From contig CM000152.2 in the NCBI GenBank assembly GCA_000004695.1, forward strand, positions 2,240,001-2,304,000: a stretch of 64,000 nucleotides of DNA. The letters are read 5' to 3'. This stretch comes from Dictyostelium discoideum. Its lineage: Eukaryota. Below, in pieces: positions 30,199 to 60,646 of the stretch (the first letter of the stretch is position 1; each line of letters starts with the position of its first letter). A program made the translations under genes and the position numbers. A model generated the notes under the pieces. That model was given only the letters and a program-made list of their open reading frames with translations, was not told where the DNA came from and searched no databases.

Positions 30199-31016
30199 AA
30201 GATTAAAAAAAAAAAAAAAAAATCAATATTTTTAATCAAAAAAAGTAAAAATTTATTTTTGGTTTTTTTTTTATTTTTATTTTTAAAAAAAATTGATTTT
30301 TTTTTAATTTATAAATCTCAAAAAAAAAGATTTAATATCTTTTTTTTTTTTTTGAAAAATTCAATTGTTTTTGTGTTAAAAATAAAAATTCACACCCAAT
30401 AAAAATGTTATTGATAGATTTGAGGGGTAATTATAAAAAAAAATTCCAAATTTAACAAAAATATAAAATAACCACATTAACGAAAATTATTTTTGGTGTG
30501 AAAAAAGTAGTAACTTCAAAATCTCGAAACCAGATTGTGTAAGGTTGACTTTGAGACCAAAAAAAAAAATTGTGGGTTAATTTGTGATATTTCCTAAAGA
30601 AAAAAGGTTATTATTGGATGTGAATAAATAATAAACTAATTTAATACCCAATCATGTTTTTAGTCTATTATTTCTATCAAGGGATATTTCCTTTTTTAAT
30701 GAAAATCATGATTAAAAACCACAACTTTTTTACATTTTTAACAACAAGTTCATTGAATAAATTAATTTTTTTTTTTTTTTGGGGTTTTTTTTTTTTTTTT
30801 TTAGTTTAAATTTAAATCCAATTCATTTTTTTCAAGATTCTAAAAATAACAAACTCATAAATTAATTTATTTAAATAATAATAATAATAAAAAAAAAAAA
30901 ATATAAAAAAAAAAAAAAAAAACTATATATACATATATTTATTAAAAAAATAAAAAAAAAAAATAAACAAAAAAACAAAACATTTATTATTCAAATAATT
31001 ATATATAAATTAAAAC

Positions 31017-34022: not shown

Positions 34023-36340
34023 AAAACCTACATCAAATATTTTCTTTAAATTTTTAATTATAAAAAATGTAATTAAAATTGCATTATCATATTGTTGAAT
34101 ACTAGCATCATTATTAATTTTAAATAATATTGGACCAAAAATATTTGAAATTTTATGTTGAATAATTTCTAATTTCTCTTGGTCTTCATAACTTAGAGAT
34201 TCAATTAAATTAATATCAAAACTATTATTATGATTTTCATTTTCATTTTTATCCATTGTATCAATATTATTATTATTATTACTATTATTATTACTATTAT
34301 TATTACTATTATTACTATTATTACTATTATTATTACTATTATTATTATTTTCAATACCAATTTCAATTTGAATTAATTTACAAAGATGTGATAATAATGA
34401 TTTTAAAACTGTCCAATGAATTTGTGGTTGTGAGAATATTATTGAACGTACAAATGATAATTTATATCTTTCATCATTTTCATCGATAATCTTATTAATA
34501 GTTTCAGAAAGTAATACATCTGGTAAAATTGAATTTGGTAATACTTTAAAGAAATGAATTAATAATTCACCCAATACTTGTGGTTCTACCATTTCATTCA
34601 AATTTTTATATGCATCCTCTTTTCCTCTAGTAACTAATTTAATTAATGATTCAATTGTTATTCTATTTCTTGGTGATGATGGTTCAATAATTGTTGTTGT
34701 CATAACAATTGGTTGTGGTTGTGATTGTGGTGGTAGTGGTAGTGGTAGTGGTAGTGGTAGTGGTGGTGGTGGTTGTATATTTCCACTATTTCTTATATTT
34801 GATGTTTGATTGTTATTATCTGTACCAATATTTAAATCTGGTATAGTTATACTATTTCTTATATTTGATGTTTGAATATTATTAATATTATTAATATTAT
34901 TATTATTATTTACATTATTATTACAATTATTTGTATTTGTATTATTGTTACTATTTGATTCGCTGCCGCTGCTGCAAATTTTACTATTATTTGTTGAGGT
35001 AGAAGTTGAATTATTTATATTATAAATAATTTCAATTGATTCTTTAGTTGATTCTAAATGAGTTATTAGATGATGTAAGAAAACAGGATAAGGTGAATCA
35101 CCTAATAATCGCATTGATTCTAAGGGTATACCAAATACATCCTCTTTGAAACAATATTGTTGTACATCACCCCTTGCATTTCTAGTTGTTAACATTTTAC
35201 TTAATGTTGATGCTGCTGCTTCTTTATTTGTATCAACTGTTGATTTTTTACTTGTTTTAAATAATGGTTTAAAAACCAATGCTGTTGTATTTGATCTTTC
35301 TCTAGGTGAGACTGGTACTTCAATATTATCATTATTATTATTACCATTATTATTATTTGTATCAAATCCAATTGTTACATTATTAGCACCATTTTCACTT
35401 GTAAAACGTGGTGATGAAATTGGTGTTGATTGATTTGATGATTCTTTTGAACTAAATAAAGATATTAAAATATTTTGACCAAATGCAATTGATTTATGAG
35501 TTTCTCTACTTGGTTTTCTTGATGCAACACCATTATTATTATTATTGTTATTATTATTTGATTGTTGATTAATTGAAAATTGATTGGTTGAATAGGATCT
35601 TGGTGGTGAATTAGAATAAGGTGAATTTGAAGTTGTAGTTGGGGTTGATGCTGGTGTACTCCCATTACCACTATTAGTAGTAGTAGTTTGAGAGTTTGTT
35701 GCTGTTGTATTATTATTATTATTATCACTATTAATAGAATCTTGATCTTCCTCTGCAGCCAATACAATCTTTGAATCTTTATCTTTTAAAGGTGATAAAA
35801 GATAATTTAAATTATTTGTTTTATTCTTTCTTAATGTTTTACCACCACCACCACCACTGCCACCACTTCCACTACCACCAAATGATGGTAATGAACCACT
35901 TCTACTTCTAGTCTCTGGTTTCAATCTAGATTCTTGATGAACAATATTCAAATTCTTACTTGGTGATGTTGATAATTGTAATGGTGGTATCTTTGGTGGT
36001 GATGATGAAATTTTATCGTCTTCTATTCCGTTGTTATTGTTTTTGTTATTATTATTCTTTGGAATTGGTAATGATGGTGAAGTATTTGTAGTTGTTGTAT
36101 TTTTTGTAGTATTAATAATTGGTGGTGGAGTTGTAACTTCAGTTGTTGTTGGTGTCGATACTATACTTGGAGTTGAAGGAGCAGTATAAGAACCACTATT
36201 ATTATAATTATTATTTATAATGATTGGATGATTTGATTCTTTTAATATTGATTTCGAAGGTGATTGAACAGAAACACTAAAGAAACGATTTCTCTTTTTC
36301 TCAAAGCTACTTGGTTCACCATTAAATGTTAATTTCTTAC

Positions 36341-40186: not shown

Positions 40187-40533
40187 TTTTGTTATTTTAT
40201 TTTATTTTATTTTATTTTTTTTTTTTTTGTTATTTGTTTTTTTTTATTTTTATTTGTTTTTTTTTACTGTTTGTTATGTTTAATAAAAATAAAAAAAAAA
40301 ATAAAAAAAAAAAAATAAAAAATAAAAAACAAAAAATTATAACATACTTTGTGACAATAAAAAGAAAAGGAAAAATTCAAATCGAGCTGTGACGTTTTTT
40401 TTCGAGTTTTTAGGTTTTGGGTTTTTTTTTTTTTTTTGTAAAAGGAACTAAAAAATATTAAAAATTTAGGTTACCAGCCGTTTTTCATTTTTTTTATTAT
40501 TTTTTTTTTTTTTTTTTAAATTAATTATATTTT

Positions 40534-43500
40534 TTACAACTGCTCGTCATTACCGTTTGGGGTGTTGAAAGATGAATTATTAGGTGATTCGAAATCATTA
40601 TTAGAATATTCAGAAGGTGAATTTGAGTTTGAATTATTTGAATTTTGGCGAGAATCGCTGATCATTGTTGATAATTTGGTACTGTTTCTATTTTTTGAAC
40701 CTCCGCTATTTGTTGGACTATTATCTGAACTTGTATTAATATTTCTAGCACGTTGTTCAAAACAATACAAAATACTAAATCCAGGAACGATTTCAGTGAT
40801 TATTAAACCAATGAAACTGAATATCATTGAATTTACATTTCCTGCTACTAAAATCAATACAAATACACAATGTAATAAAAATCCAATCGAACATGCAACA
40901 GTGAGTGTAAAAATTTTTCTTTGATGATTTGATTTTGAGCCCACTTTAATATTGGTTGAACGCATAACAATGAATAAACGGCCACCCAAGTAAATGAATG
41001 CTGCACCCATAATTAATGAAATTAATGCTTGAATCACCGCGTAAACAATACTAACTACACGTTGTGGTGTTGAACTTTCCACTGGAATTATAATACGCGA
41101 ACCACAATCATTACTTGGATCGGTATTGGTATATTGGAAAACTAATACAATGGCAATGAATAATAGGTAGAGGAATGCATTGATTACAAATACAATTGTA
41201 AATAATCTCTTTGATAAATTCTCAGCAGATTTATTCTTTTTCAATACCAAGAATACAATGACATACCAAAGTACTAAAAGAATATTAAATGCTGTAAAGT
41301 AAATAAATGTTGGTAATACCACTAGAATGTAATCGGCGATTGGACTATCAGATAAATTACCACTTGGCATAATAAAGAAATAAATGGCTCTAATTGTGAT
41401 AAATAGTGTTACGACACCAATTAAAAGATGGGTTAGTTGGAAATTTCTTTTTTCTGAAACAAACTGAGTTCTAACAATAAGACATAATTCAAATAAACCC
41501 CAAATTGAGACTACTGAAAAGAGAGCACCCAATGTATACATTAATGCTCTTGATGTTGAGTCGAATGCTTGTTTACTTTCATTTTCCCATTCATCCATTC
41601 GATTAATTGGGAAATAAATTGGATTACCACCTTCAATGGTAACAATTGAACATAACATTAAAACTTCATCTTTACCTGCAGTTACACTATCCTTTGAAAT
41701 TTGAGTGAATATTTTATTTGATTGAATTGGAGTTGGTGTTGTTGATTCACCATCGATTTGAACTGCAAAATCTAAAATTGGATATTTTGTGCTAGATAGA
41801 GATATTTTCAAACAAATGGTTGCTTCATTTATACCATCTTGTGATTTAATCATAATACCATCTCCTAATAATGTACCAATGATTGCATCATTAGAGTTTT
41901 TAACACCATATTTATCAGCTTTCTTATAGGATACGAAATTTGATGCTAATGATTCTTTTTGTGCTGATGTATAGATTTCTCTTGAAATTTGTGAAATTGA
42001 TAAAGATTGACAACTTTGAGAGATTGAATCATTTGAAAATTCAATTTTACCATAATCGAATGAAAATGATGAATTTACACCTGCGCATGGTTTAGTTTGA
42101 CCTAATAATGGTGTTGATGCAGTGAAACATTGTGAGCCACCTTTACCTGAACAACTACATGTAATTGAGTTCAAATTTGATTGTAATCTTTCCATACGAC
42201 AATATGCTTCTGAACGGAATAAATCTGCAACTTGAGTTTTTGCTGCTTTTGTAACACTCTTGTAGAATAGTTGATAATTGAATACACTATCGATATCATT
42301 TGGAATGAATGATTTCGCAGTATTCCAAACAATTGGTTTATAAACACCTGGTAACCATGTAGCTGCTTTCCATTGGAATTTATTTGTCCATTTATTGAAT
42401 GAGTCCATACAACCTTCACATAAATCTTGATCCATTTCATTGAATTGGTAGTTGAATGGTAAATTATTAACTGTTATAGTGGATTCTAAAATTTTACAAC
42501 CCATTTGTGATGTACATGAACTTTGATTTCTTGCCGGTATCCACCATACACCACCATCATCTTCACAACTAACTTTACTCAAGTAGTCCAATCCTAATGG
42601 ATAACAACCATTTGGTGAATCTTGTTGGGCATATGGTTCACAACTTATGCCACTAAATTTACCATGTGGGAATAAACATTTACCATATCCATCAGGATAA
42701 TTATAATTTCTTGTAGTGGCTTGATTGAAATAAAATTCATCAGAACAAATACCTGCTGTTAAACATTCTTGTTCAGTTTGACACTCAATTGGTTTTAATG
42801 AGCATAAACTTTGTTGAGCATCTGGACCAATGCATTCACCTTCAAGTTTTGTTGAACAATCTATCCATGTATAACCTGAACCAGCAGTAATACATTGTTG
42901 TTCATCTGTTGCAGATTTTAATATACAAACTTTTGCTTCGGTTGACCATTCAGTTGTACCTACAGGATTATCTAATGCTGCACAATTTGTGCTATTCATT
43001 CCGGTTTGTAAAATTGCACAATAATCATCTTGATTATTTGCTAAACTTGAAGAGCATTCATAACCACATGGTACTGAACATTTACCTTTAGAATTACAAT
43101 TACTTTCGCTTGTTGCTGTTAAATCATATTCACCATTTGGTAAAAGACAAATTTGATTTTGAGTTTGACATGATGTTTGATCTGTAAATTCAGTAGCTAC
43201 ATGACATTGAGTATCTTCATTTGTACAAACACCACAAAAATCTTTTAAAACACAAGCATCTTCACATGACTCTTCAATACCATTTTCAGTATATGTATTA
43301 TCACTGCATGACAAGTATGGACAAATACCCCAAGAAGTACAATTATCAAAATGTGATACTAATCTAAAATCCCAATATAAAAACATACTATCCAAACAAG
43401 TATCATGATGAGAAAGGCATGAACCATCCAAACATCCATTTGTTGAATAACATTGTTCTTTGCTGTATGATACTCTTGACCCCCATGTATATGTAGAACG

Positions 43501-44348
43501 TTCATTTATATCATTTTGACCAATACAATCATCTTTTAAATGTTTATTGAAAACTTTAGTAACAACATCATCATTTACAATGGTTGAACTCTCCAACAAT
43601 GAGAATAATGTACCAGGTGATAAATTTGATAATACACATTTTACATATTCAAAATCGATTTTATTAAAATTTGGTAAACAAGTTCTTGAATATAAATTAC
43701 ATTTACCATCGCCATATCCATTACAATCTGTATCATTTGTACAAAATGATGTTGGTGGTATTAATTTACTCTTGCAATCTCTTAAAACTGTAATTGATGT
43801 TAATTCTAATTTGGTTGGTTCAGTTGATGGCACAGCACAATCATCAATACCATCCAACGAGCTACCATAATCTGATAATACTGATGAGGTACATTCTAGA
43901 CTTGAACATTGTTCACCTACTAAACTTTGATTCACCGATACGAATTGTGTGATGTTAGTTGGAATAATTGATGGATTACAGCATTGATAATAATCCTGAA
44001 TTGGTGAACAACATGGATCAGTTTTATATTCTGGATCAGTACTTAAGTATTGACATAATCTAATTGAAATATTCTTTACAACAGTTTCCATATGTAATAA
44101 TGATAATGCTTTATTACTACAACCTATCCATGCATCACTAATAGTTAATGAATCTAAACTATATCTATAATTATTTAATTCATCAATATCTGATACATTA
44201 AATAATACTTTTTCTGTATTTTCTAACAATTCCAAAACTTGTTGAAATTTATCAGTATCACATTCAATTTCTTTTTCTTTAAATCCAACTTGAATATTAA
44301 TTGGCTAATTAAAAAAAAAAAAAAAAAAAAATGGTTAGTAAATAATAA

Positions 44349-44429
<81 letters not shown>

Positions 44430-45961
44430 CTTACATTATCATTTTCATCAAAAATATTTGAAAGAAATTGTAATTTTGAATTTAAAATTGTTTCAAAATC
44501 AAATACTTTAACTAAATCATTTTTACCAACACTTGAGGAGAGTCTGACAGAAGCTTGAAATGATTTTGGTTTATAGGAACTAAATGAATCCTTTATAATG
44601 TCATCATAAATTAAAAGGTAGTCAAACTTTGGTGTATGGAAAAAGAAGGATGGGACTGGATATAATGGATTAATATCAGTTTGTGGATATAAAATTGTAA
44701 AAGGGTCAGATGCATCAAATGTTGGACCATCATAATATGAAGTTGGGGTATCCAAACGAGCTGTATTTACTAATGATATTGCACCTGCTTGAGTTGTCAT
44801 AAAATTACTTTCATAAAATGAATATCTATATCTATCACCTTGTGTTGTAATTGAAAAAGTATAATTTGTTGAATAAGTTGGTACAGCTGTTATATATATT
44901 GTTGATGGTTCTAAATATAAAACTATATAGTTATCAACTATTTTAAAATAAAAAAAAAATAAAAAAAAACAAATAATAAATATTAAATTAAAAAAAAAAA
45001 AAATTTGTATTAAATTAAAAAAAAAAAAAAACTTACAATCTTCTGATAATTGCCAAAAAGAATCCAATTCTGTTGGCTTTTGAGTTGAATTTGACATATA
45101 ATAAATTACATTTTGGTACATGCATGGGAAATTAAAGTAATAAAATTCTGCTTTATCAACTTGAAAAGAGTAATATTGTGGTTCATATGCCTCTGCCACA
45201 TTATTAATAATTTCACCAGTGGTGATACAAATGTGGTCAGGAGTTGCAGATTGGCAATTTGAAGTATCTACTGTAGCATTTGGTACTTTATTTGTATGAA
45301 GGATTAATGAGAATTTGAAATATTGGCTTTGTGGTACAACATTTATAAAGTAGGTATCTCTAGTCCATGATAATGTATATGAATAATGTTCAGCTACATC
45401 CCAATTATCAGATGGGCAAATATTAAATAATGCCAATCTTTGTGATTTATACTCTGATGAATATCTTTGATAGGTTAATGATGGTGTTGAGCCAATGTAT
45501 GTATCACCATAACCTTCCATTGGAGTGACTTTAAGGAAAACACCATTACAACCAAACGAATCGGCTTTAACCCTAAATCTTTGAATTTTACCACCTGATG
45601 ATTCAAAGCTATATTGTTTATCGAATTCAACCGTTTTCCATTCTCCACTGCATAATTCAATTCCTTCAACGCCAGTTTCGTCACATACATTTGTACAACT
45701 TGGATGACGGATTTTTGGACATTCGTTCATATCTGTATAATCACATGTACAATCAATTTCACTATCACTTGGAATATCTGTACAATTATAGTTTGGACAT
45801 CCCAATGAATCATATTTATAAATATCTTGATCAAATTCGATATCAATCAATGCATATGATAAATCAACACCCAAAACGTTTACATCTTTTTTAACAACTG
45901 TTGATGATTTAACTTCAAAACCTATTTAAAATTATTTTTTATTGTGTTTTTAGAATTTGAG

Positions 45962-45997
<36 letters not shown>

Positions 45998-46201
45998 CAA
46001 TTTCGTAAAACAAAAAATGATCAAATTTGCTTAAAAAAAAAAAAAAAAAAAAAAGACAAATAAAACAAAATAAAATAAAACAAAATAATAATAATATAAA
46101 ATAAAATAAAATAAAATAAAATAAAATAAAATAAAATTACCTTTAATCAAATTTATTATACTCAAAAAAATAAATAGAAATAATAAAAAATTATTCTTCA
46201 T
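40534..46201 (-). CDS. Giant 7TM receptor-like protein, paralogue A (about 1800 aa). 4 exons: about 46141-46201 signal peptide; about 45047-45921; about 44446-44935; 40534-about 44305. Divergent beta-rich N-terminal domain, long Cys-rich ectodomain, C-terminal 7 transmembrane helices, S/N-rich cytoplasmic tail.
   Basis: Exon1 MKNNFLLFLFIFLSIINLIK is followed by a GTAATT donor. Exon2 GFEVKSSTVVKKDVNVLGVDLSYALIDIEFD... runs to ...WQLSED with a GTAAGT donor. Exon3 ..DNYIVLYLEP... runs to ...IFDENDN with a GTAAGT donor. The (AAT)n intron ends ..aattag. Exon4 PINIQVGFKEKEIECDTDKFQQVLELLENTEKVLFNVSDIDELNNYRY... is the 1233-aa ORF. The ORF-track start MELLE is a TTG codon, not a real Met. Seven hydrophobic helices: ALMYTLGALFSVVSIWGLFELCLIV, LLIGVVTLFITIRAIYFFIM, YILVVLPTFIYFTAFNILLVLWYVIVF, LFTIVFVINAFLYLLFIAIVLVF, VVSIVYAVIQALISLIMGAAFIYLGG, IFTLTVACSIGFLLHCVFVLILVA, MIFSFIGLIITEIVPGFSILYCF. 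Confidence 0.7.
44340..44420. repeat. (AAT)n microsatellite in the last intron of paralogue A. The equivalent (AAT)n lies at about 50800-50930 in paralogue B.
   Basis: Direct reading of perfect trinucleotide runs at orthologous intron positions. Confidence 0.9.
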
Positions 46202-46371
46202 TTTTTTAAAAAAGAAAAATTATAAACTATTCTTTTTTTGATGTGAAAAAAAAAAAAAGTGTTTATAAAAATATATTTATAGATTATTATTTGATGAAGG
46301 AAAGATTTATTTCAAGGACCTCTTTTTTTTTTTTTAAATGAATTATATATATTTTTTTTTTTCCTCTTTTC

Positions 46372-46411
<40 letters not shown>

Positions 46412-46693
46412 AAAGTTTGTTTTGATCAAAAAATTTTCGTACGAGAGACCCTAATACTTGCAAGACCGTCCCAAAGATAAAGGGAAAAAAAATAAAAAAA
46501 TAAAAAAAAAAAAAATAAAAAAATTTAAAAAAATGTTTTTAGCTTTTAAGGATAAATCTTTGAACACAGATTTGTGTCAGTTTACTTTAATATCTTTTTT
46601 TCTCAATAAATTAAATTAAAATTTTTTTATTTTTTTTTTTTTTTTGTAAATAAAAAAATGTTTAAAACTAAAAATAAAACCACAATTAATCAA

Positions 46694-46725
<32 letters not shown>

Positions 46726-46921
46726 ATAATTTATATATTCTCAAAAATATCTTATATTTATCAACAAAAAAGAGGTATCTTTAAAAAAAAACAATTTTTT
46801 TAATTTTATTTATTTAATATTTTTTTGTTATATATTTATTTTTAGTTAATTATGTTTTTTTATTTTTATTTTAAATGTACAAAACTTATTTTTTCAATTA
46901 AAAAAAAAAGTTATTTTATTC

Positions 46922-52826
<5,905 letters not shown>

Positions 52827-53477
52827 TTTTTTTTTTTTTTTAATTTTTAATTATTTAAGTTTTGGTATGAATTTTTACCTTTGCGTTTTCTTTATTTTTT
52901 AGAAAAAAAAAAAAAAACAAATAATAATAACTTCATATACGAAGATTATTGTTTTGTAAGCGATAATTATTTAGAAAAACAATTGGAAAAAAAAAAAAAA
53001 AAATTAAAAAAAGAAAAAAAAAATAAATTAAAATAAAAAAAAATTACAAAAAAAAATTTGAGTAGATATTATAATAATTGATTGACGAGGTTTCGACAAA
53101 GGCTATAAAAAAAAAAAAATTCAACCAATCAAATCTTTTGGATATAGATTTTTTTTTTTGAATTTTTACAAAAAAAAAAAAAAAAAATTGAAAAATCTAA
53201 GTATGCTATTAAAATCATTTTAGATGGTCCAATCAACAGATTGTTTTTTAGGTTTAAAAATCATTATCATAATAACCAACTGTTTTTTTTTTTTAAAATT
53301 AAAAAACGTAAGGTGGGCCAAGTTTATTCCTTTTTATTGTAATTTTTTATCACTTTTTTTTTTTCTGACTTTTTATTTTTTTTTTTTTTTTTTTAATTTT
53401 AGCGTACCTAAAACTTTTTTTTAATTTTTATTTTTTTTTTTATTTTTATTTTTTTTTATATTTTTTTTTATTTCGAA

Positions 53478-56400
53478 TCAATCATCATTACTGGTTGGAG
53501 TGTTGACTGATGAATTATTGGGTGATTCGAAATCATTATTTGAATACTCGGATGGTGAATTGGAATTAGTATTAATTGAATTTTGACGAGAATCGCTAAC
53601 CATTGTCGATAATCTCGTTCCTTTTTCTCTCTTTGAGCCACCTCTACTGCTACCCCTAGTTGTTCCACTTGCGGTGTCAGCAACATTATTTTTAGCACGT
53701 TGGTCAAAGCAGAATAAAATACTACATGCTGGAATAATTTCAGTGATTATTAAACCAATGAAACTGAATACCATTGAATTTACATTTCCTGCTACTAAAA
53801 TCAAAACAAAAGCACAATGTAATAAAAACCCAATTGAGCAAACGAATGAAAGTATGAAAATTTTTCTTTGATGATTTGATTTTGAGCCCACTTTAATATT
53901 GGTTGAACGCATAACAATGAATAAACGGCCACCCAAGTAAATGAATGCTGCACCCATAATTAATGAAATTAATGCTTGAATCACCGCATAAACAATACTA
54001 ACTACACGTTGTGGTGTTGAACTTTCAATTGGAATTATAATACGTGAACCACAATCATTGGTTGGATTTGATTTGGTATATTGGAAAACCAATACAATTG
54101 CAATGAATAATAGGTAGAGGAATGCATTGATTACAAATACAATTGTAAATAATCTGTTTGTTAGATTATCAGCAGATTTATTCTTTTTCAATACCAGGAA
54201 AACAATGACATACCAAAGTACTAAAAGAATATTAAATGCTGTAAAGTAAATAAATGTTGGTAATACCACAAGAATGTAATCAATGATTGGACTATCGGAT
54301 AAATTACCACTTGGCATAATAAAGAAATAAATGGCTCTAATTGTGATAAATAGTGTTACGACACCAATTAAAAGATGAGTTAATTGGAATTTTCTTTTAA
54401 TTGATATATTTCTTTGTTTATATCTTGCAATTGCGATTAAACATAGTTCAAATCCACCCCACAACGCGACAACCAAAAAGAAGGTGGCCAATGTATACAT
54501 TAATGCCTTTGATGTCGAGTCGAATGCTTGTTTTCTTTCATCCTCCCATTCATCCATACGATTAATTGGGAAATAAATTGGATTACCACCTTCAATGGTA
54601 ACAATTGAACATAACATTAAAACTTCATCTTTACCTGCAGTTACACTATCCTCTGAAATTTGAGTGAAAACTTTACTTGATTGAATTGGATTTGGTGTTT
54701 TTGATTCAATATCATAACTACCATCATTTATTTGAATTGCAAAATCATAAATTGGATATTTTGAATTATTTGTTCCAGATATTGTTAAACAAATGGTTGC
54801 TTCATTTATACCATCTTGTGATTTAATCATAATACCATCTCCTAATAATGTACCAATGATTGCATCATTAGAGTTTTTAACACCATATTTATCAGCTTTC
54901 TTATAGGATACGAAATTTGATGCTAATGATTCTTTTTGTGCTGATGTATAGATTTCTCTTGAAATTTGTGAAATTGATAAAGATTGACAACTTTGAGAGA
55001 TTGAATCATTTGAAAATTCAATTTTACCATAATCGAATGAAAATGATGAATTTACACCTGCGCATGGTTTAGTTTGACCTAATAATGGTGTTGATGCAGT
55101 GAAACATTGTGAGCCACCTTTACCTGAACAACTACATGTAATTGAGTTCAAATTTGATTGTAATCTTTCCATACGACAATATGCTTCTGAACGGAATAAA
55201 TCTGCAACTTGAGCTTTTGCTGCTTTTGTAACACTCTTGTAGAATAGTTGATAATTGAATACATCTCTATTTTCATTTGGAATGAATGATTTTGCAGTAT
55301 TCCAAACAATTGGTTTATAAACACCTGGTAACCATGTGGCTGCTTCCCATTGGAATTTATTTGTCCATTTATTGAATGAATCTATACATGCTTCACATGT
55401 TTCTTGGTTCATTTCATTAAAATGGAAGTTGTATGGTAAATTGGTTTCATATGATTCTAAAATTTTACAACCCATTTGTAATGTACATGAACTTTGATTT
55501 CTTGCTGGTGTCCACCATACACCACCATCATCTTCACAATCGATTTGAGTTAAAACCATTGGATTAATAGAGTAGCAACCATTTGGTGAATCTTGTTGTT
55601 CAGACTCCTTACATGAAATTAAATATTGATAATTATCATGTGGGAACACACATCTACCCAATCCAACAGGATAATGATTATTTGCAAGAGAACTAAAGTA
55701 AAAGTCATCGGAACAAGTACCTGCTGCTGTTAAACATTCTTGTTCAGTTTGACATTCAATTGGTTTTAGTGAACAAAGTTTTACATTATTTAATGGTCCA
55801 GAACATTCACCTTCAAGTTTTGTTGAACAATCTATCCATGTATAATTTGTACCAGTGGCAGTACATTGTTGTTCATCCGTTGCAGATTTTAATATACAAA
55901 CATTTGCTTCGGTTGACCATTCAGTTGTACCTACAGGATTATCTAATGCTGCACAATTTGTGCTATTCATTCCGGTTTGTAAAATTGCACAATAATCATC
56001 TTGATTATTTGCTAAACTTGAAGAGCATTCATAACCACATGGTACTGAACATTTACCTTTAGAATTACAATTACTTTCGCTTGTTGCTGTTAAATCATAT
56101 TCACCATTTGGTAAAAGACAAATTTGATTTTGAGTTTGACATGATGTTTGATCTGTAAATTCAGTAGCTACATGACATTGAGTATCTTCATTTGTACAAA
56201 CACCACAAAAATCTTTTAAAACACAAGCATCTTCACATGACTCTTCAATGCCATTTTCAGTATATGTATTATCTTTGCAAGACAAGTATGGACAAATACC
56301 CCAATCAGTACAATTATCAACATGAGAAACTAATCTAAAATCCCAATGTGCATAAATTGACTCAATACAAGTATCATGATAGGTAATACATGATTCATCA

Positions 56401-58845
56401 ATACATTCTTGATGTTGAACTGCATAACAATCATCTACTTGGAATCCTGGTGACCAAATAAATGTTGAACGATCTTTAATATAATTATGACCAATACAAT
56501 CCTCTCTTATATGGTTATTGAAAACTTTAGTTACAACATCATCATTTACTGTTGTTGAACCTTCTAACAATGAGAATAATGTACCAGGTGATAAGTGTAA
56601 TAGTACACATTTTACATATTCAAAATCGATTGTATCAAAATCTGGTATACAAGTTCTTGAGTATAAATTACATTCACCATTTCCATATCCATTACAATCT
56701 GTATCATTTGAACAAAATGGTGATACTAATTTACTCTTGCAATCTCTTAAAACTGTAATTGATGTTAATTCTAATTTTTTAGGTTCAATTGATGGCACAG
56801 CACAATCATCAATACCAGTTAACGAACTACCATAATCTGATAATACTGATGAGGTACATTCTTGACTTGAACATTGTTCACTTACTAAACTTTTATTCAC
56901 CGATATGAATTGTGTAACATTTTTTAAAACAATTGATGGATTACAACATTGATAATATCTAGCCAATTCTGAACAACATGGGTCAGTTTTATATTCTGGA
57001 TCAGTGACGAAATGTGAACAATATTTTGTTGATATATTCTTTGCAACAGTTTCCATATGTAATAATGATAATGCTTTATTACTACAACCTATCCATGCAT
57101 CACTAATAGTCAATGAATCTAAACTATATCTATAATTATTTAATTCATCAATATCCGAAACATTAAATAGTGTTGTCTCTGTTTTTTCAATAAGTCCCAA
57201 AACTTTTTCAAATTCTGTATTATTACATTCTAAATTTTTTTCTTTAAAATTAATAGTTAAATCAATTGGCTAAAGTAATAATAATAATAATAATAAAAAA
57301 TAAATGTTAATAATTTTTTAAAAAATAAATGTTAATAATTTTTTAAAAAATAAAAATAAAAATTTAATATTATTATTTACATTATTATTTTCATCAAAAA
57401 TAGTTCCAAGGAATTGTAAAGATGATTCTAAAATTGTTGAATAATTTTCAATAAAATCACCACCAACTGAAAGAATAAATGCAACTTGAAATGATTTTGG
57501 TTTAAAAGTATTTAATGGTGGCTGTAAAATATTTAAATAGTTAAATGAAGTTGAATCAATGAAACGAGCAGATACTGGCCATAATGGATTTATATCGTAT
57601 TGTGGATAAATTGCGGTGAATGTAGTGCTAGTTGTAAAAGCTGCTGAATCATAATCAATAGTTGGCAAACGTAAACGTACACTATTAACCAATGCTAAAG
57701 TACCAGGTTGTGTTGATAATGATCCCAATGAATATCTATACCTATTACCTTGATTTGTAATTGAAAATGAATAATCTGTTTCATAAACTGTATATACACT
57801 TAAATAAATAATTAATGGTGTTGTACTATCAACTGGTTCCAAATATAATACCATATTATTTTCATCTAAAAAAAAAATAAAAAATAAAAAATAAAAAAAC
57901 AATTAATAAATTAATAAATTAATAAATTAATAAAATTATTATTATTTAAATACGTTACAATCTTGTTCTAATTTCCAAGTTGTATAACTGGCATTTGGAA
58001 ATATATATTCGTTTGAAATAAATATTGAAGTACTTTGAAAAATTGAAGGGAAATTAAAATAATAGAAACCAGCATTTTCAACTTGAAATGAATAATGTTG
58101 ATATTGATTATCTGTTAAGAAACCATAGACAACTTGACCAATAGTTACACATATATGGTCAGATGATACTGGTTGACAATTTGAAGTGTCGACAGGTTCA
58201 CTTGGTACATCATTTGAACGAATGATCATTTTAAAAGTATAATTGTTACTAAGTGGTTGAATTCTTAAAAAGTAAGTGTCACGACTCCAAGAATCTGTGA
58301 ATGTAAAATGTTCAGTTCTATTCCAATTATCTGATGGACATATATTGAATAACATATTTCTTTCAGGTGAAAAACCAGATGAATAACGTGAATAGCTTGA
58401 TGATGGTGTTTTACCATTAATATAAACTTGACCATATCCAGAGATTGGTAAAACTTTTAAAAATAAACCTTTACAACCAAATGAATCGGCTTTCATTCTA
58501 AAAAATAGATCCTCTGATGTAGTATAGATTTTTTCTGTATCCGATTCAATAGTTGTCCATTCGCCATTACAAATATTCTCAGTGACATTACATGCATTTG
58601 TACAACTTGGATCACGGATTTTCGGACATTCGTTCATATCTGTATAATCACATGTACAATCTATATTCTTATCACTTGGAATATCTGTACAATTATAGTT
58701 TGGACATCCCAATGAATCATATAAATAAATATCTTGATCAAATTCAACATCAATCAATGCATATGATAAATCGGTTCCCAATAAGTTAACATCTTTTTTT
58801 ATAATAGTTGACGATTTAACTTCAATACCTATTTACAATTATTTT

Positions 58846-58899
<54 letters not shown>

Positions 58900-59214
58900 G
58901 TATTTTTAGAATTTTTGATTTTCACGTTTTACAAAAAAAAAAAATAGTGCGAAAAAAAAAAACAGTGCGAAAAAAAAACAGTTCGAATTGTTTTTTTTTT
59001 TTTTTTTTCAGATTCCGTGTGGTAAAATAATTATAATTGTTTATTTTTTGATCTTCGTAAAAATAAAAAAAAATAAAAATAAAACAAAAAAGATAAAAAT
59101 AAAAAAAATAATAATAATGAAAAAAGAAATTAATTTACCTCTGATTTTATTTATAAAAAAAAGATGGAACGAAAATAAGAAAATGTAAAATATTACAATA
59201 TTTTTAACATTCAT
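53478..59214 (-). CDS. Giant 7TM receptor-like protein, paralogue C, same architecture: about 59139-59214; about 57966-58828; about 57381-57869; 53478-about 57268.
   Basis: Exon1 MNVKNIVIFYIFLFSFHLFFINKIR(G) has a GTAAAT donor. Exon2 GIEVKSSTIIKKDVNLLGTDLSYALIDVEFDQDIYLYDSLGCPNYNCTDIP...TWKLEQD has a GTAACG donor. Exon3 (acceptor ttttttag) ..ENNMVLYLEPVDSTTPLIIY...IFDENNN has a GTAAAT donor. Exon4 is the 1240-aa ORF MGLIEKTETTLFNVSD...; its real exon start lies upstream at the ..ctttag acceptor at about 57268. The 7TM region is about 95% identical to A and B. Confidence 0.7.
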
Positions 59215-59660: not shown

Positions 59661-60512
59661 CAAAGCATTTTTTTTTTTTTTTTAATTCGATCTCACCTAA
59701 AATCTTTTCAAAGAGTTTTGGTAATTTTATTTGATCATGAGATGTATGATAGATTTTTTGTTAGGTTTGATGATCATAATTCTCCACACCAAAAAAAATA
59801 AAATAATAAGAATTTATTCATTCTGGTTACAAAACAAAAAATTGAACAAAAATAATTATAAAGGAATTTCACTTTTTAATTTTTTTTTTTTTTTTTTTTT
59901 TTTTCGGATGAATTGTTTTATTAGAAAAAAAACATGTGGGTCAGAAAACAAAAAAAAAAGACTATAAATACTATTTTAAAATTAATTTTTTTTATTTTTT
60001 TTTTATTTTGAGGGGCGAAAAAAAAAAAGATATTTTTGATAAGAACATTTCAATTTAAATTTTTAATTTTTCTTTCACCTTTTTTTTTTTTTTTTTTAAT
60101 TATTAATTTATATTTTTCTTTTTTTCCTTGTTTTTTTAAGAAAGCATTTTTTAATTTTTTAATATCAATTTTTTATTAATTTATATATTTTTTTTTTTCT
60201 TGTTTTTTTTTTTTTTTTTGGTCTACCAATTTTTTTTATATTTTTTTTTTTAAATATTAAAAGATTAATATTTAAAGGAATTTAATAGTGTCTTTTTTTT
60301 TTTTTTTTTTTTTTTTTTTTGGCGTATTCCAAAAGTCTAAGAATCTCTTCAAGAATTTGATAGGGTTATAAAAAATAAAATAAGAAAAACGATTCACGCT
60401 TTACAGCATTCATATAATATTAATTGTGTGTTCCTTTATTTATTATGATCAATAATACATTAAAAAAAAAGAAAAAAATAAAAAAAAAATAAAAAAATAA
60501 AAAATAAAACAA

Positions 60513-60580
60513 AAGGACAACTCGCGAAGGGTTTTTTTTTGGAGAAAAATTCAGAGTAATTGCTGTAAGGCGAGCTTATT
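60513..60580 (-). ncRNA. Candidate Dictyostelium Class I non-coding RNA gene (about 60-70 nt).
   Basis: The minus strand reads AAGCTCGCCTTACAGCAATTACTCTGAATTTTTCTCCAAAAAAAAAACCCTTCGCGAGTTGTCC. It contains the exact 11-nt CCTTACAGCAA motif immediately after a 5' arm (GCTCGC). That arm can pair with a 3' arm (GCGAG), giving the short terminal stem characteristic of Class I RNAs. It ends in a U-rich tract, and a DUSE-like element lies about 60 nt upstream. Confidence 0.6.
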
Positions 60581-60634
60581 TAAAAATTAAAAAAAATCTA
60601 TTAATTAGTAAAAAAAATTTTAATAATAAAATTT

Positions 60635-60646
60635 TTATGGGATTTT
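60635..60646 (-). promoter_or_regulatory. DUSE-like (Dictyostelium upstream sequence element) box TCCCATAAAAA, about 55-65 nt upstream of the candidate Class I RNA.
   Basis: The plus strand shows tttttatggga at 60633-60643. Its reverse complement matches the [A/T]CCCA[C/T]AA consensus that I recall from Dictyostelium ncRNA promoters, with the expected spacing to the RNA 5' end. Confidence 0.5.

Follow-up and report, generated by a model that had tools for sequence, protein, structure and literature searches.

The Class I RNA locus in the window (the whole 64,000-nt stretch of Dictyostelium discoideum chromosome 3 that was analysed), together with its DUSE (Dictyostelium upstream sequence element), was with near certainty the known gene DdR-36 (r36, DDB_G0295547; approximately 2,300,517–2,300,575, minus strand). 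The minus strand contained a 58-nt RNA-like segment starting with a 5' G (GCTCGCCTTACAGCAATTACTCTGAATTTTTCTCCAAAAAAAAACCCTTCGCGAGTTG, 60575..60518), which was identical at 58 of 58 positions to DdR-36 in the curated set ddi_curated.fa (Kjellin et al. 2021, PMC7919456). The published BED file lists r36 at 2300516–2300575 on the minus strand of DDB0232430 (chromosome 3), i.e. the window position plus exactly 2,240,000 (35 × 64,000), so that the window corresponds to 2,240,001–2,304,000 of this chromosome. When the whole window was searched with Rfam 15, the sole match at or above the gathering score was RF01414 (Dicty_Class_I_RNA) at 60518–60575(−), which covered the full model (1–56) and scored 43.6 bits (E = 4.8e-5), the gathering score being 41.5. 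The margin was only 2 bits, since the stem GCUCGC and the 3' end UUGU depart from the GUUGAC and CUGU of the majority. The published covariance models (CMs) scored 39.9–58.1 bits at the DdR-36 coordinates, and Table S2 of that study gives r36/DdR-36 a classifier score of 58.8 and a CM score of 39.9 (PMC7919456). No evidence was found against the identity as DdR-36.

The initial annotation had described an unannotated-looking Class I ncRNA gene with a DUSE about 60 nt upstream. Gene class and promoter were borne out by the RF01414 match, the covarying terminal stem and the identity to a published, expressed member, and the covariance-model comparison that it had proposed was positive. The Soderbom group had, however, already placed an annotation at precisely these coordinates, namely DdR-36/r36 (DDB_G0295547, AJ699397). 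Its entry in the dictyBase-derived GFF reads Name=r36, ID DDB0237349, gene DDB_G0295547, source 'Soderbom group', type class_II_RNA and GenBank AJ699397; the computationally predicted loci in that file are without an accession (PMC7919456 supplement). The annotated ends vary between 58 nt for the CM match (60518–60575), 59 nt for the curated BED entry (an extra 3' U at 60517) and 62 nt in dictyBase (60516–60577). DdR-36 is a published, cDNA-cloned RNA, and its gene was reportedly cloned in 2004. Cloned, annotated in dictyBase and re-analysed in 2021, it is already known, and there is nothing new at this locus. The features of the locus are listed in the table.

Features of the DdR-36 locus, in window positions
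Feature	Position	Strand	Basis and remarks
DdR-36 (r36) Class I RNA gene	60517..60575	−	Rfam RF01414, 58/58 identity, published BED/GFF
Terminal stem, 5' arm, GCUCGC	60570..60575	−	RNA positions 1–6; Rfam alignment, MFE fold, covariation count
11-nt Class I motif CCUUACAGCAA (DNA CCTTACAGCAA)	60560..60570	−	RNA positions 6–16; first C shared with stem
Terminal stem, 3' arm, GCGAGU	60520..60525	−	RNA positions 51–56, then UG(U); Rfam alignment
DUSE, putative promoter box, TCCCATAA	60635..60642	−	Pattern search; −67 to −60 from 5' G
T-runs TTTT G TTTT A TTTTTT, candidate Pol III-type terminator	60499..60514	−	Sequence

DdR-36 agreed with the Class I family in CM score, 5' G, 6-bp stem, 11-nt motif, DUSE distance, size, GC content and intergenic position; among the features tested, the UUGU 3' end was its sole departure. 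With 58 nt and 41.4% GC, the RNA was within the family criteria (approximately 42–65 nt, median approximately 60; GC 32–41%). The exact 11-nt Class I motif that had been read from the minus strand was present there: CCTTACAGCAA occurred as a single exact copy in the window, compared to approximately 0.0085 copies expected from base composition on both strands. The GCTCGC 5' arm was also present, but did not lie strictly ahead of the motif as had been described, its last C being the first base of the motif (RNA position 6). The complementary GCGAG(U), placed about 45 nt downstream in the initial annotation, was found 44 nt past the 5' arm. The family end CUGU is 'almost perfectly conserved' and its C pairs with the 5' G; in the UUGU end of DdR-36 this C was replaced, and the pairing with G1 was kept as a G·U wobble. 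DdR-35 also ends in UUGU, and both RNAs have been curated as Class I members despite this end (PMC7919456). A relaxed scan of the window, which required a G at the 5' end, the invariant positions of the motif and TG after a closing stem of 6 bp, returned the DdR-36 locus only.

All six pairs of the GCUCGC/GCGAGU stem were standard, comprising five Watson–Crick pairs and a G1·U56 wobble. As had been anticipated for the two ends, the minimum free energy (MFE) fold at 37 °C (−5.9 kcal/mol) contained the 6-bp terminal stem, but its stability was not distinctive, the folding energy being no better than that of shuffled sequences (z = −0.92). The stem pair probabilities (ViennaRNA) were approximately 0.8 at 37 °C and approximately 0.5–0.6 at 22 °C, the lower values at 22 °C arising because an alternative fold of the U-run with the A-run competes. 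The mean predicted unpaired probability of the 11-nt motif was approximately 0.7. Thermodynamic support for the stem was only moderate; given the z-score and the competing fold at 22 °C, folding energy was dropped as a discriminator and covariation was used instead. The terminal stem covaries across the Class I family, whose criteria ask for conservation of its structure and not of its sequence. In the 25-sequence family alignment, 95.3% of the cells paired, both-side changes were seen in four of the six pairs, and the observed covariation score was reached by none of 500 shuffles. When control structures were slid by 1–3 columns, 6–48% of the cells paired. The majority stem is GUUGAC/GUCAAC; in DdR-36, pairs 2, 4 and 5 differed from it by compensatory changes, and pair 1 was a wobble.

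The predicted DUSE box was present and ended exactly 60 nt from the 5' G at 60575. The DUSE consensus is WCCCAYAA ([A/T]CCCA[C/T]AA), and by the Class I criterion it lies approximately 60 nt ahead of either the start or a TGTG box. No TGTG box was found within 200 nt upstream of DdR-36; likewise, Table S2 gives r36 the same DUSE TCCCATAA, a distance of 60 and no TGTG box (PMC7919456). All expressed Class I genes are preceded by a DUSE, and high-scoring loci without a correctly placed one are silent (PMC7919456). The chance probability of a DUSE at the right distance from a given site was approximately 0.0009. The consensus was not enriched in the window (7 copies versus approximately 10 expected). 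The six other matches were situated in coding-like DNA, none indicating another ncRNA gene; three of the seven matches occupied the same coding position in the three copies of a tandem gene repeat. The T-rich 3' stretch noted in the initial annotation was also present, starting 4 nt past the 3' end of DdR-36. T-runs downstream of many Class I genes have been noted and Pol III has been suggested, while the DUSE occurs at both Pol II and Pol III genes (PMC7919456). The T-runs are weak evidence, because TTTT occurs no more than 12 nt further on from 28% of the spacer positions.

Expression of DdR-36 is documented in published small-RNA-seq libraries, the kind of signal that had been proposed as a check. 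The reads for r36 amounted to 79,233 and 93,470 at 0 h, 115,049 and 143,784 at 4 h, and 147,465 and 142,199 at 8 h, with an expression-validation flag of 1 and a discrete 5' end at the locus (PMC7919456). These reads were full-length 50-mers, and mapping allowed no more than one mismatch (PMC7919456). In our own comparison, an indel at RNA position 25/26 gave at least five ungapped mismatches between DdR-36 and DdR-35 within the first 50 nt; therefore, the read counts should be locus-specific. The raw counts for r36 climbed between 0 h and 8 h, in contrast to the developmental down-regulation described for the family; being un-normalised, they are no measure of regulation.

The closest relative of DdR-36 was DdR-35 (r35; chromosome 1, DDB0232428:3001192–3001250), with 96.6% identity. 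Both RNAs have the same stem, motif and UUGU end, and similar read counts. A single indel in the U-run and a single A/C difference in the loop set them apart, and their genes are on different chromosomes. The DUSE flanks of DdR-35 and DdR-36 were nearly identical (AAAAAAAAAA TCCCATAA AAAATTTATT versus AAATTTTATT), which, together with the 96.6% identity, indicates that the promoter was duplicated along with the gene. The termini GCUCGC...GCGAGUUG seen in the window were shared with DdR-35 only, out of 46 curated sequences of D. discoideum and D. firmibasis. The next closest relative was DfiR-7 of Dictyostelium firmibasis (JH723771.1:159595–159654), which was 83% identical to DdR-36. DfiR-7 shares the motif and the promoter layout, with the DUSE TCCCATAA at 57 nt and no TGTG box, and its loop closely resembles that of DdR-36 (CUCUG..AAUUUUU(U)CU..CCAAAAAAAA..CCCUU). 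In contrast, its stem is GUCUGC/GCAGAC, with pairs 2–4 changed on both sides, pair 1 being G–C instead of G·U, and its 3' end is CUG. The three pairs swapped between DdR-35/36 and DfiR-7 represent compensatory transitions. Class I RNAs normally vary in their loop, but this was well conserved between DdR-35/36 and DfiR-7, and a DUSE at approximately 57–60 nt without a TGTG box was common to all three.

The majority of D. discoideum Class I RNAs (RF01414), including DdR-21, share with DdR-36 the 5' G, a 6-bp terminal stem and the exact 11-nt motif. They are also alike in size (42–65 nt), GC content (approximately 40%), DUSE promoter, intergenic position and high expression. The majority can be distinguished from DdR-36 by their stem (GUUGAC/GUCAAC) and CUGU end, and their DUSE is mostly located 70–90 nt upstream with a TGTG box in between, whereas that of DdR-36 is at 60 nt without a TGTG box. 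Aspegren et al. 2004 are said to have described Class II as Class I-like RNAs with conserved termini of their own. The class_II_RNA label of r35 and r36 reflects their differences in stem, 3' end and promoter. dictyBase types DdR-35 and DdR-36 as class_II_RNA, whereas the 2021 study treats both as Class I (PMC7919456).

The dictyBase typing raises the alternative that DdR-36 and DdR-35 form a separate 'Class II' family, with partners or targets of its own, that merely resembles Class I. We regard this as rather unlikely. It would fit the deviating stem with its G·U closing pair, UUGU in place of CUGU, and the DUSE placed directly at approximately −60, in the absence of the TGTG box that most D. 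discoideum Class I genes have. It would also fit DfiR-7, in which the DdR-35/36 loop and promoter layout recur with a different, fully compensated stem. Yet the exact 11-nt motif, 5' G, stem length, size, GC content and DUSE are all common to DdR-35/36 and Class I, the gathering score of the Class I model was exceeded, and both RNAs served as Class I seed members in 2021 (PMC7919456). The promoter layout itself (DUSE at 60 nt, TGTG box absent) is ancestral for Class I in other dictyostelids (PMC7919456). The difference between DdR-35/36 and Class I is at most one at the level of a subgroup.

Two further alternatives concern whether the locus is an active gene in its own right. One is that the motif match is fortuitous, or that the locus is an unexpressed relic copy (pseudogene) of a Class I gene within AT-rich intergenic DNA; in its favour, some annotated or high-scoring D. 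discoideum Class I loci are silent, e.g. r45, r57, r62 and r54 (PMC7919456), and the folding energy of DdR-36 was unremarkable. Neither the exact 11-mer nor the correctly spaced DUSE was expected by chance, however, and silent loci generally do not have a correctly placed DUSE. Moreover, r36 carries the accession AJ699397, which predicted loci in the GFF do not, and the published expression (79,000–147,000 reads per library, flag 1) refutes this explanation, whose probability we consider negligible. An origin of the small RNA by processing of a longer transcript, such as the upstream region or 5' UTR of a minus-strand gene (ORF from near 58781), also appears highly improbable. DdR-36 and that gene have the same orientation, DdR-36 being approximately 1.7 kb upstream, and a precursor transcript has been considered for Class I genes with a TGTG box (PMC7919456). 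DdR-36, in contrast, has no TGTG box but a DUSE of its own at the canonical 60 nt, and T-runs follow immediately downstream.

For DdR-36 as a Class I gene with its own promoter, we propose that the DUSE directs transcription from the G at 60575, probably by Pol III, which would stop in the downstream T-runs. The ends of the resulting 58–59-nt product would be closed by the 6-bp stem, leaving the 11-nt motif single-stranded. Class I RNAs are mainly cytoplasmic (PMC7919456). For DdR-21, and for DdR-21 only, direct binding to the RRM protein Rnp1A and disturbed early development upon knockout have been shown (PMC7919456). By analogy with this paralogue, an RNP of DdR-36 and Rnp1A probably accumulates in the cytoplasm, where the bound protein would be titrated or escorted and early multicellular development thereby modulated. 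Both a role as protein sponge or chaperone and base-pairing to mRNAs have been proposed for Class I RNAs (PMC7919456). For DdR-36, the protein-binding RNP is probably the better model, based on the motif and stem architecture shared with DdR-21, and direct base-pairing to mRNAs is less favoured.

The window had a GC content of approximately 22%, as is usual for D. discoideum. DdR-36 was located in a spacer of approximately 2.7 kb without any ORF of at least 80 aa between 58781 and 61530, so that the gene-poor 3-kb spacer of the initial annotation was roughly right. The RNA gene formed an island of 41% GC in this mostly AT-rich spacer (mean 19%), in agreement with the reported 60-nt island of normal complexity, but it was not the only one: the segment at 60.8–61.5 kb was also GC-richer. 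The short ORFs of the GC-richer segment beside DdR-36 (60.9–61.6 kb) gave no matches in a Pfam scan. DdR-36 and the 60.8–61.5 kb segment were bracketed by a direct repeat of approximately 300 nt (approximately 59.88–60.19 kb and 61.93–62.25 kb, spacing 2048) with blocks of clear identity, e.g. GAATTGTTTTATTAGAAAAAAAA and AAAGATATTTTTGAT. The repeat may have arisen by local duplication, or its two copies may be the ends of an element.

Downstream of DdR-36 and on the same strand was the last copy of a three-fold tandem repeat (40500–59000) with a period of approximately 6.48 kb and 77–100% identity between copies. Each copy contained a large minus-strand ORF, that of the last copy (53478–57200) with a THH1/TOM1/TOM3 domain (PF06454). 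Between 12000 and 20000, very AT-rich DNA (13–27% GC) showed a sustained positive GC skew (+0.2 to +0.43) and many tandem repeats, both of AAT/TAT/TTA type and longer.

No tRNA genes were found in the window with ARAGORN, and a permissive Rfam E-value scan of the window for other ncRNAs returned only a sub-threshold match to sR20, an archaeal-type C/D box snoRNA family (35407–35452(+), 25.6 bits versus a gathering score of 44, E = 0.36). This match is most likely due to chance. At 30490–30577(−), a DUSE-like ACCCACAA was followed, approximately 20 nt further on, by GTCAACCTTACACAAT, a sequence similar to the Class I 5' end GTTGACCTTACAGCAA. This look-alike (approximately 30549(−)) was rejected on the basis of its wrong spacing, the lack of an Rfam match at E ≤ 1, its absence from the published CM output and a fold z-score of −0.82; it is probably a chance occurrence or a decayed relic.

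Recognition of a real 58-nt ncRNA gene and its promoter within 64 kb of AT-rich sequence by knowledge of the motif alone serves as a positive control. Class I RNAs are of biological interest as abundant, dictyostelid-restricted RNAs linked to aggregative multicellularity, to which the DdR-36 locus itself brings nothing new. Tentatively, and with more doubt than confidence, DdR-35, DdR-36 and DfiR-7 may be a conserved, functionally distinct Class I subgroup (the old 'Class II'), with a selected loop, a compensated stem and the ancestral promoter with the DUSE at 60 nt and no TGTG box. The loop of this subgroup includes a U-run and an A-run that could form an internal hairpin. If true, it would follow that this subgroup has a specific target or partner other than that of the bulk of Class I RNAs.
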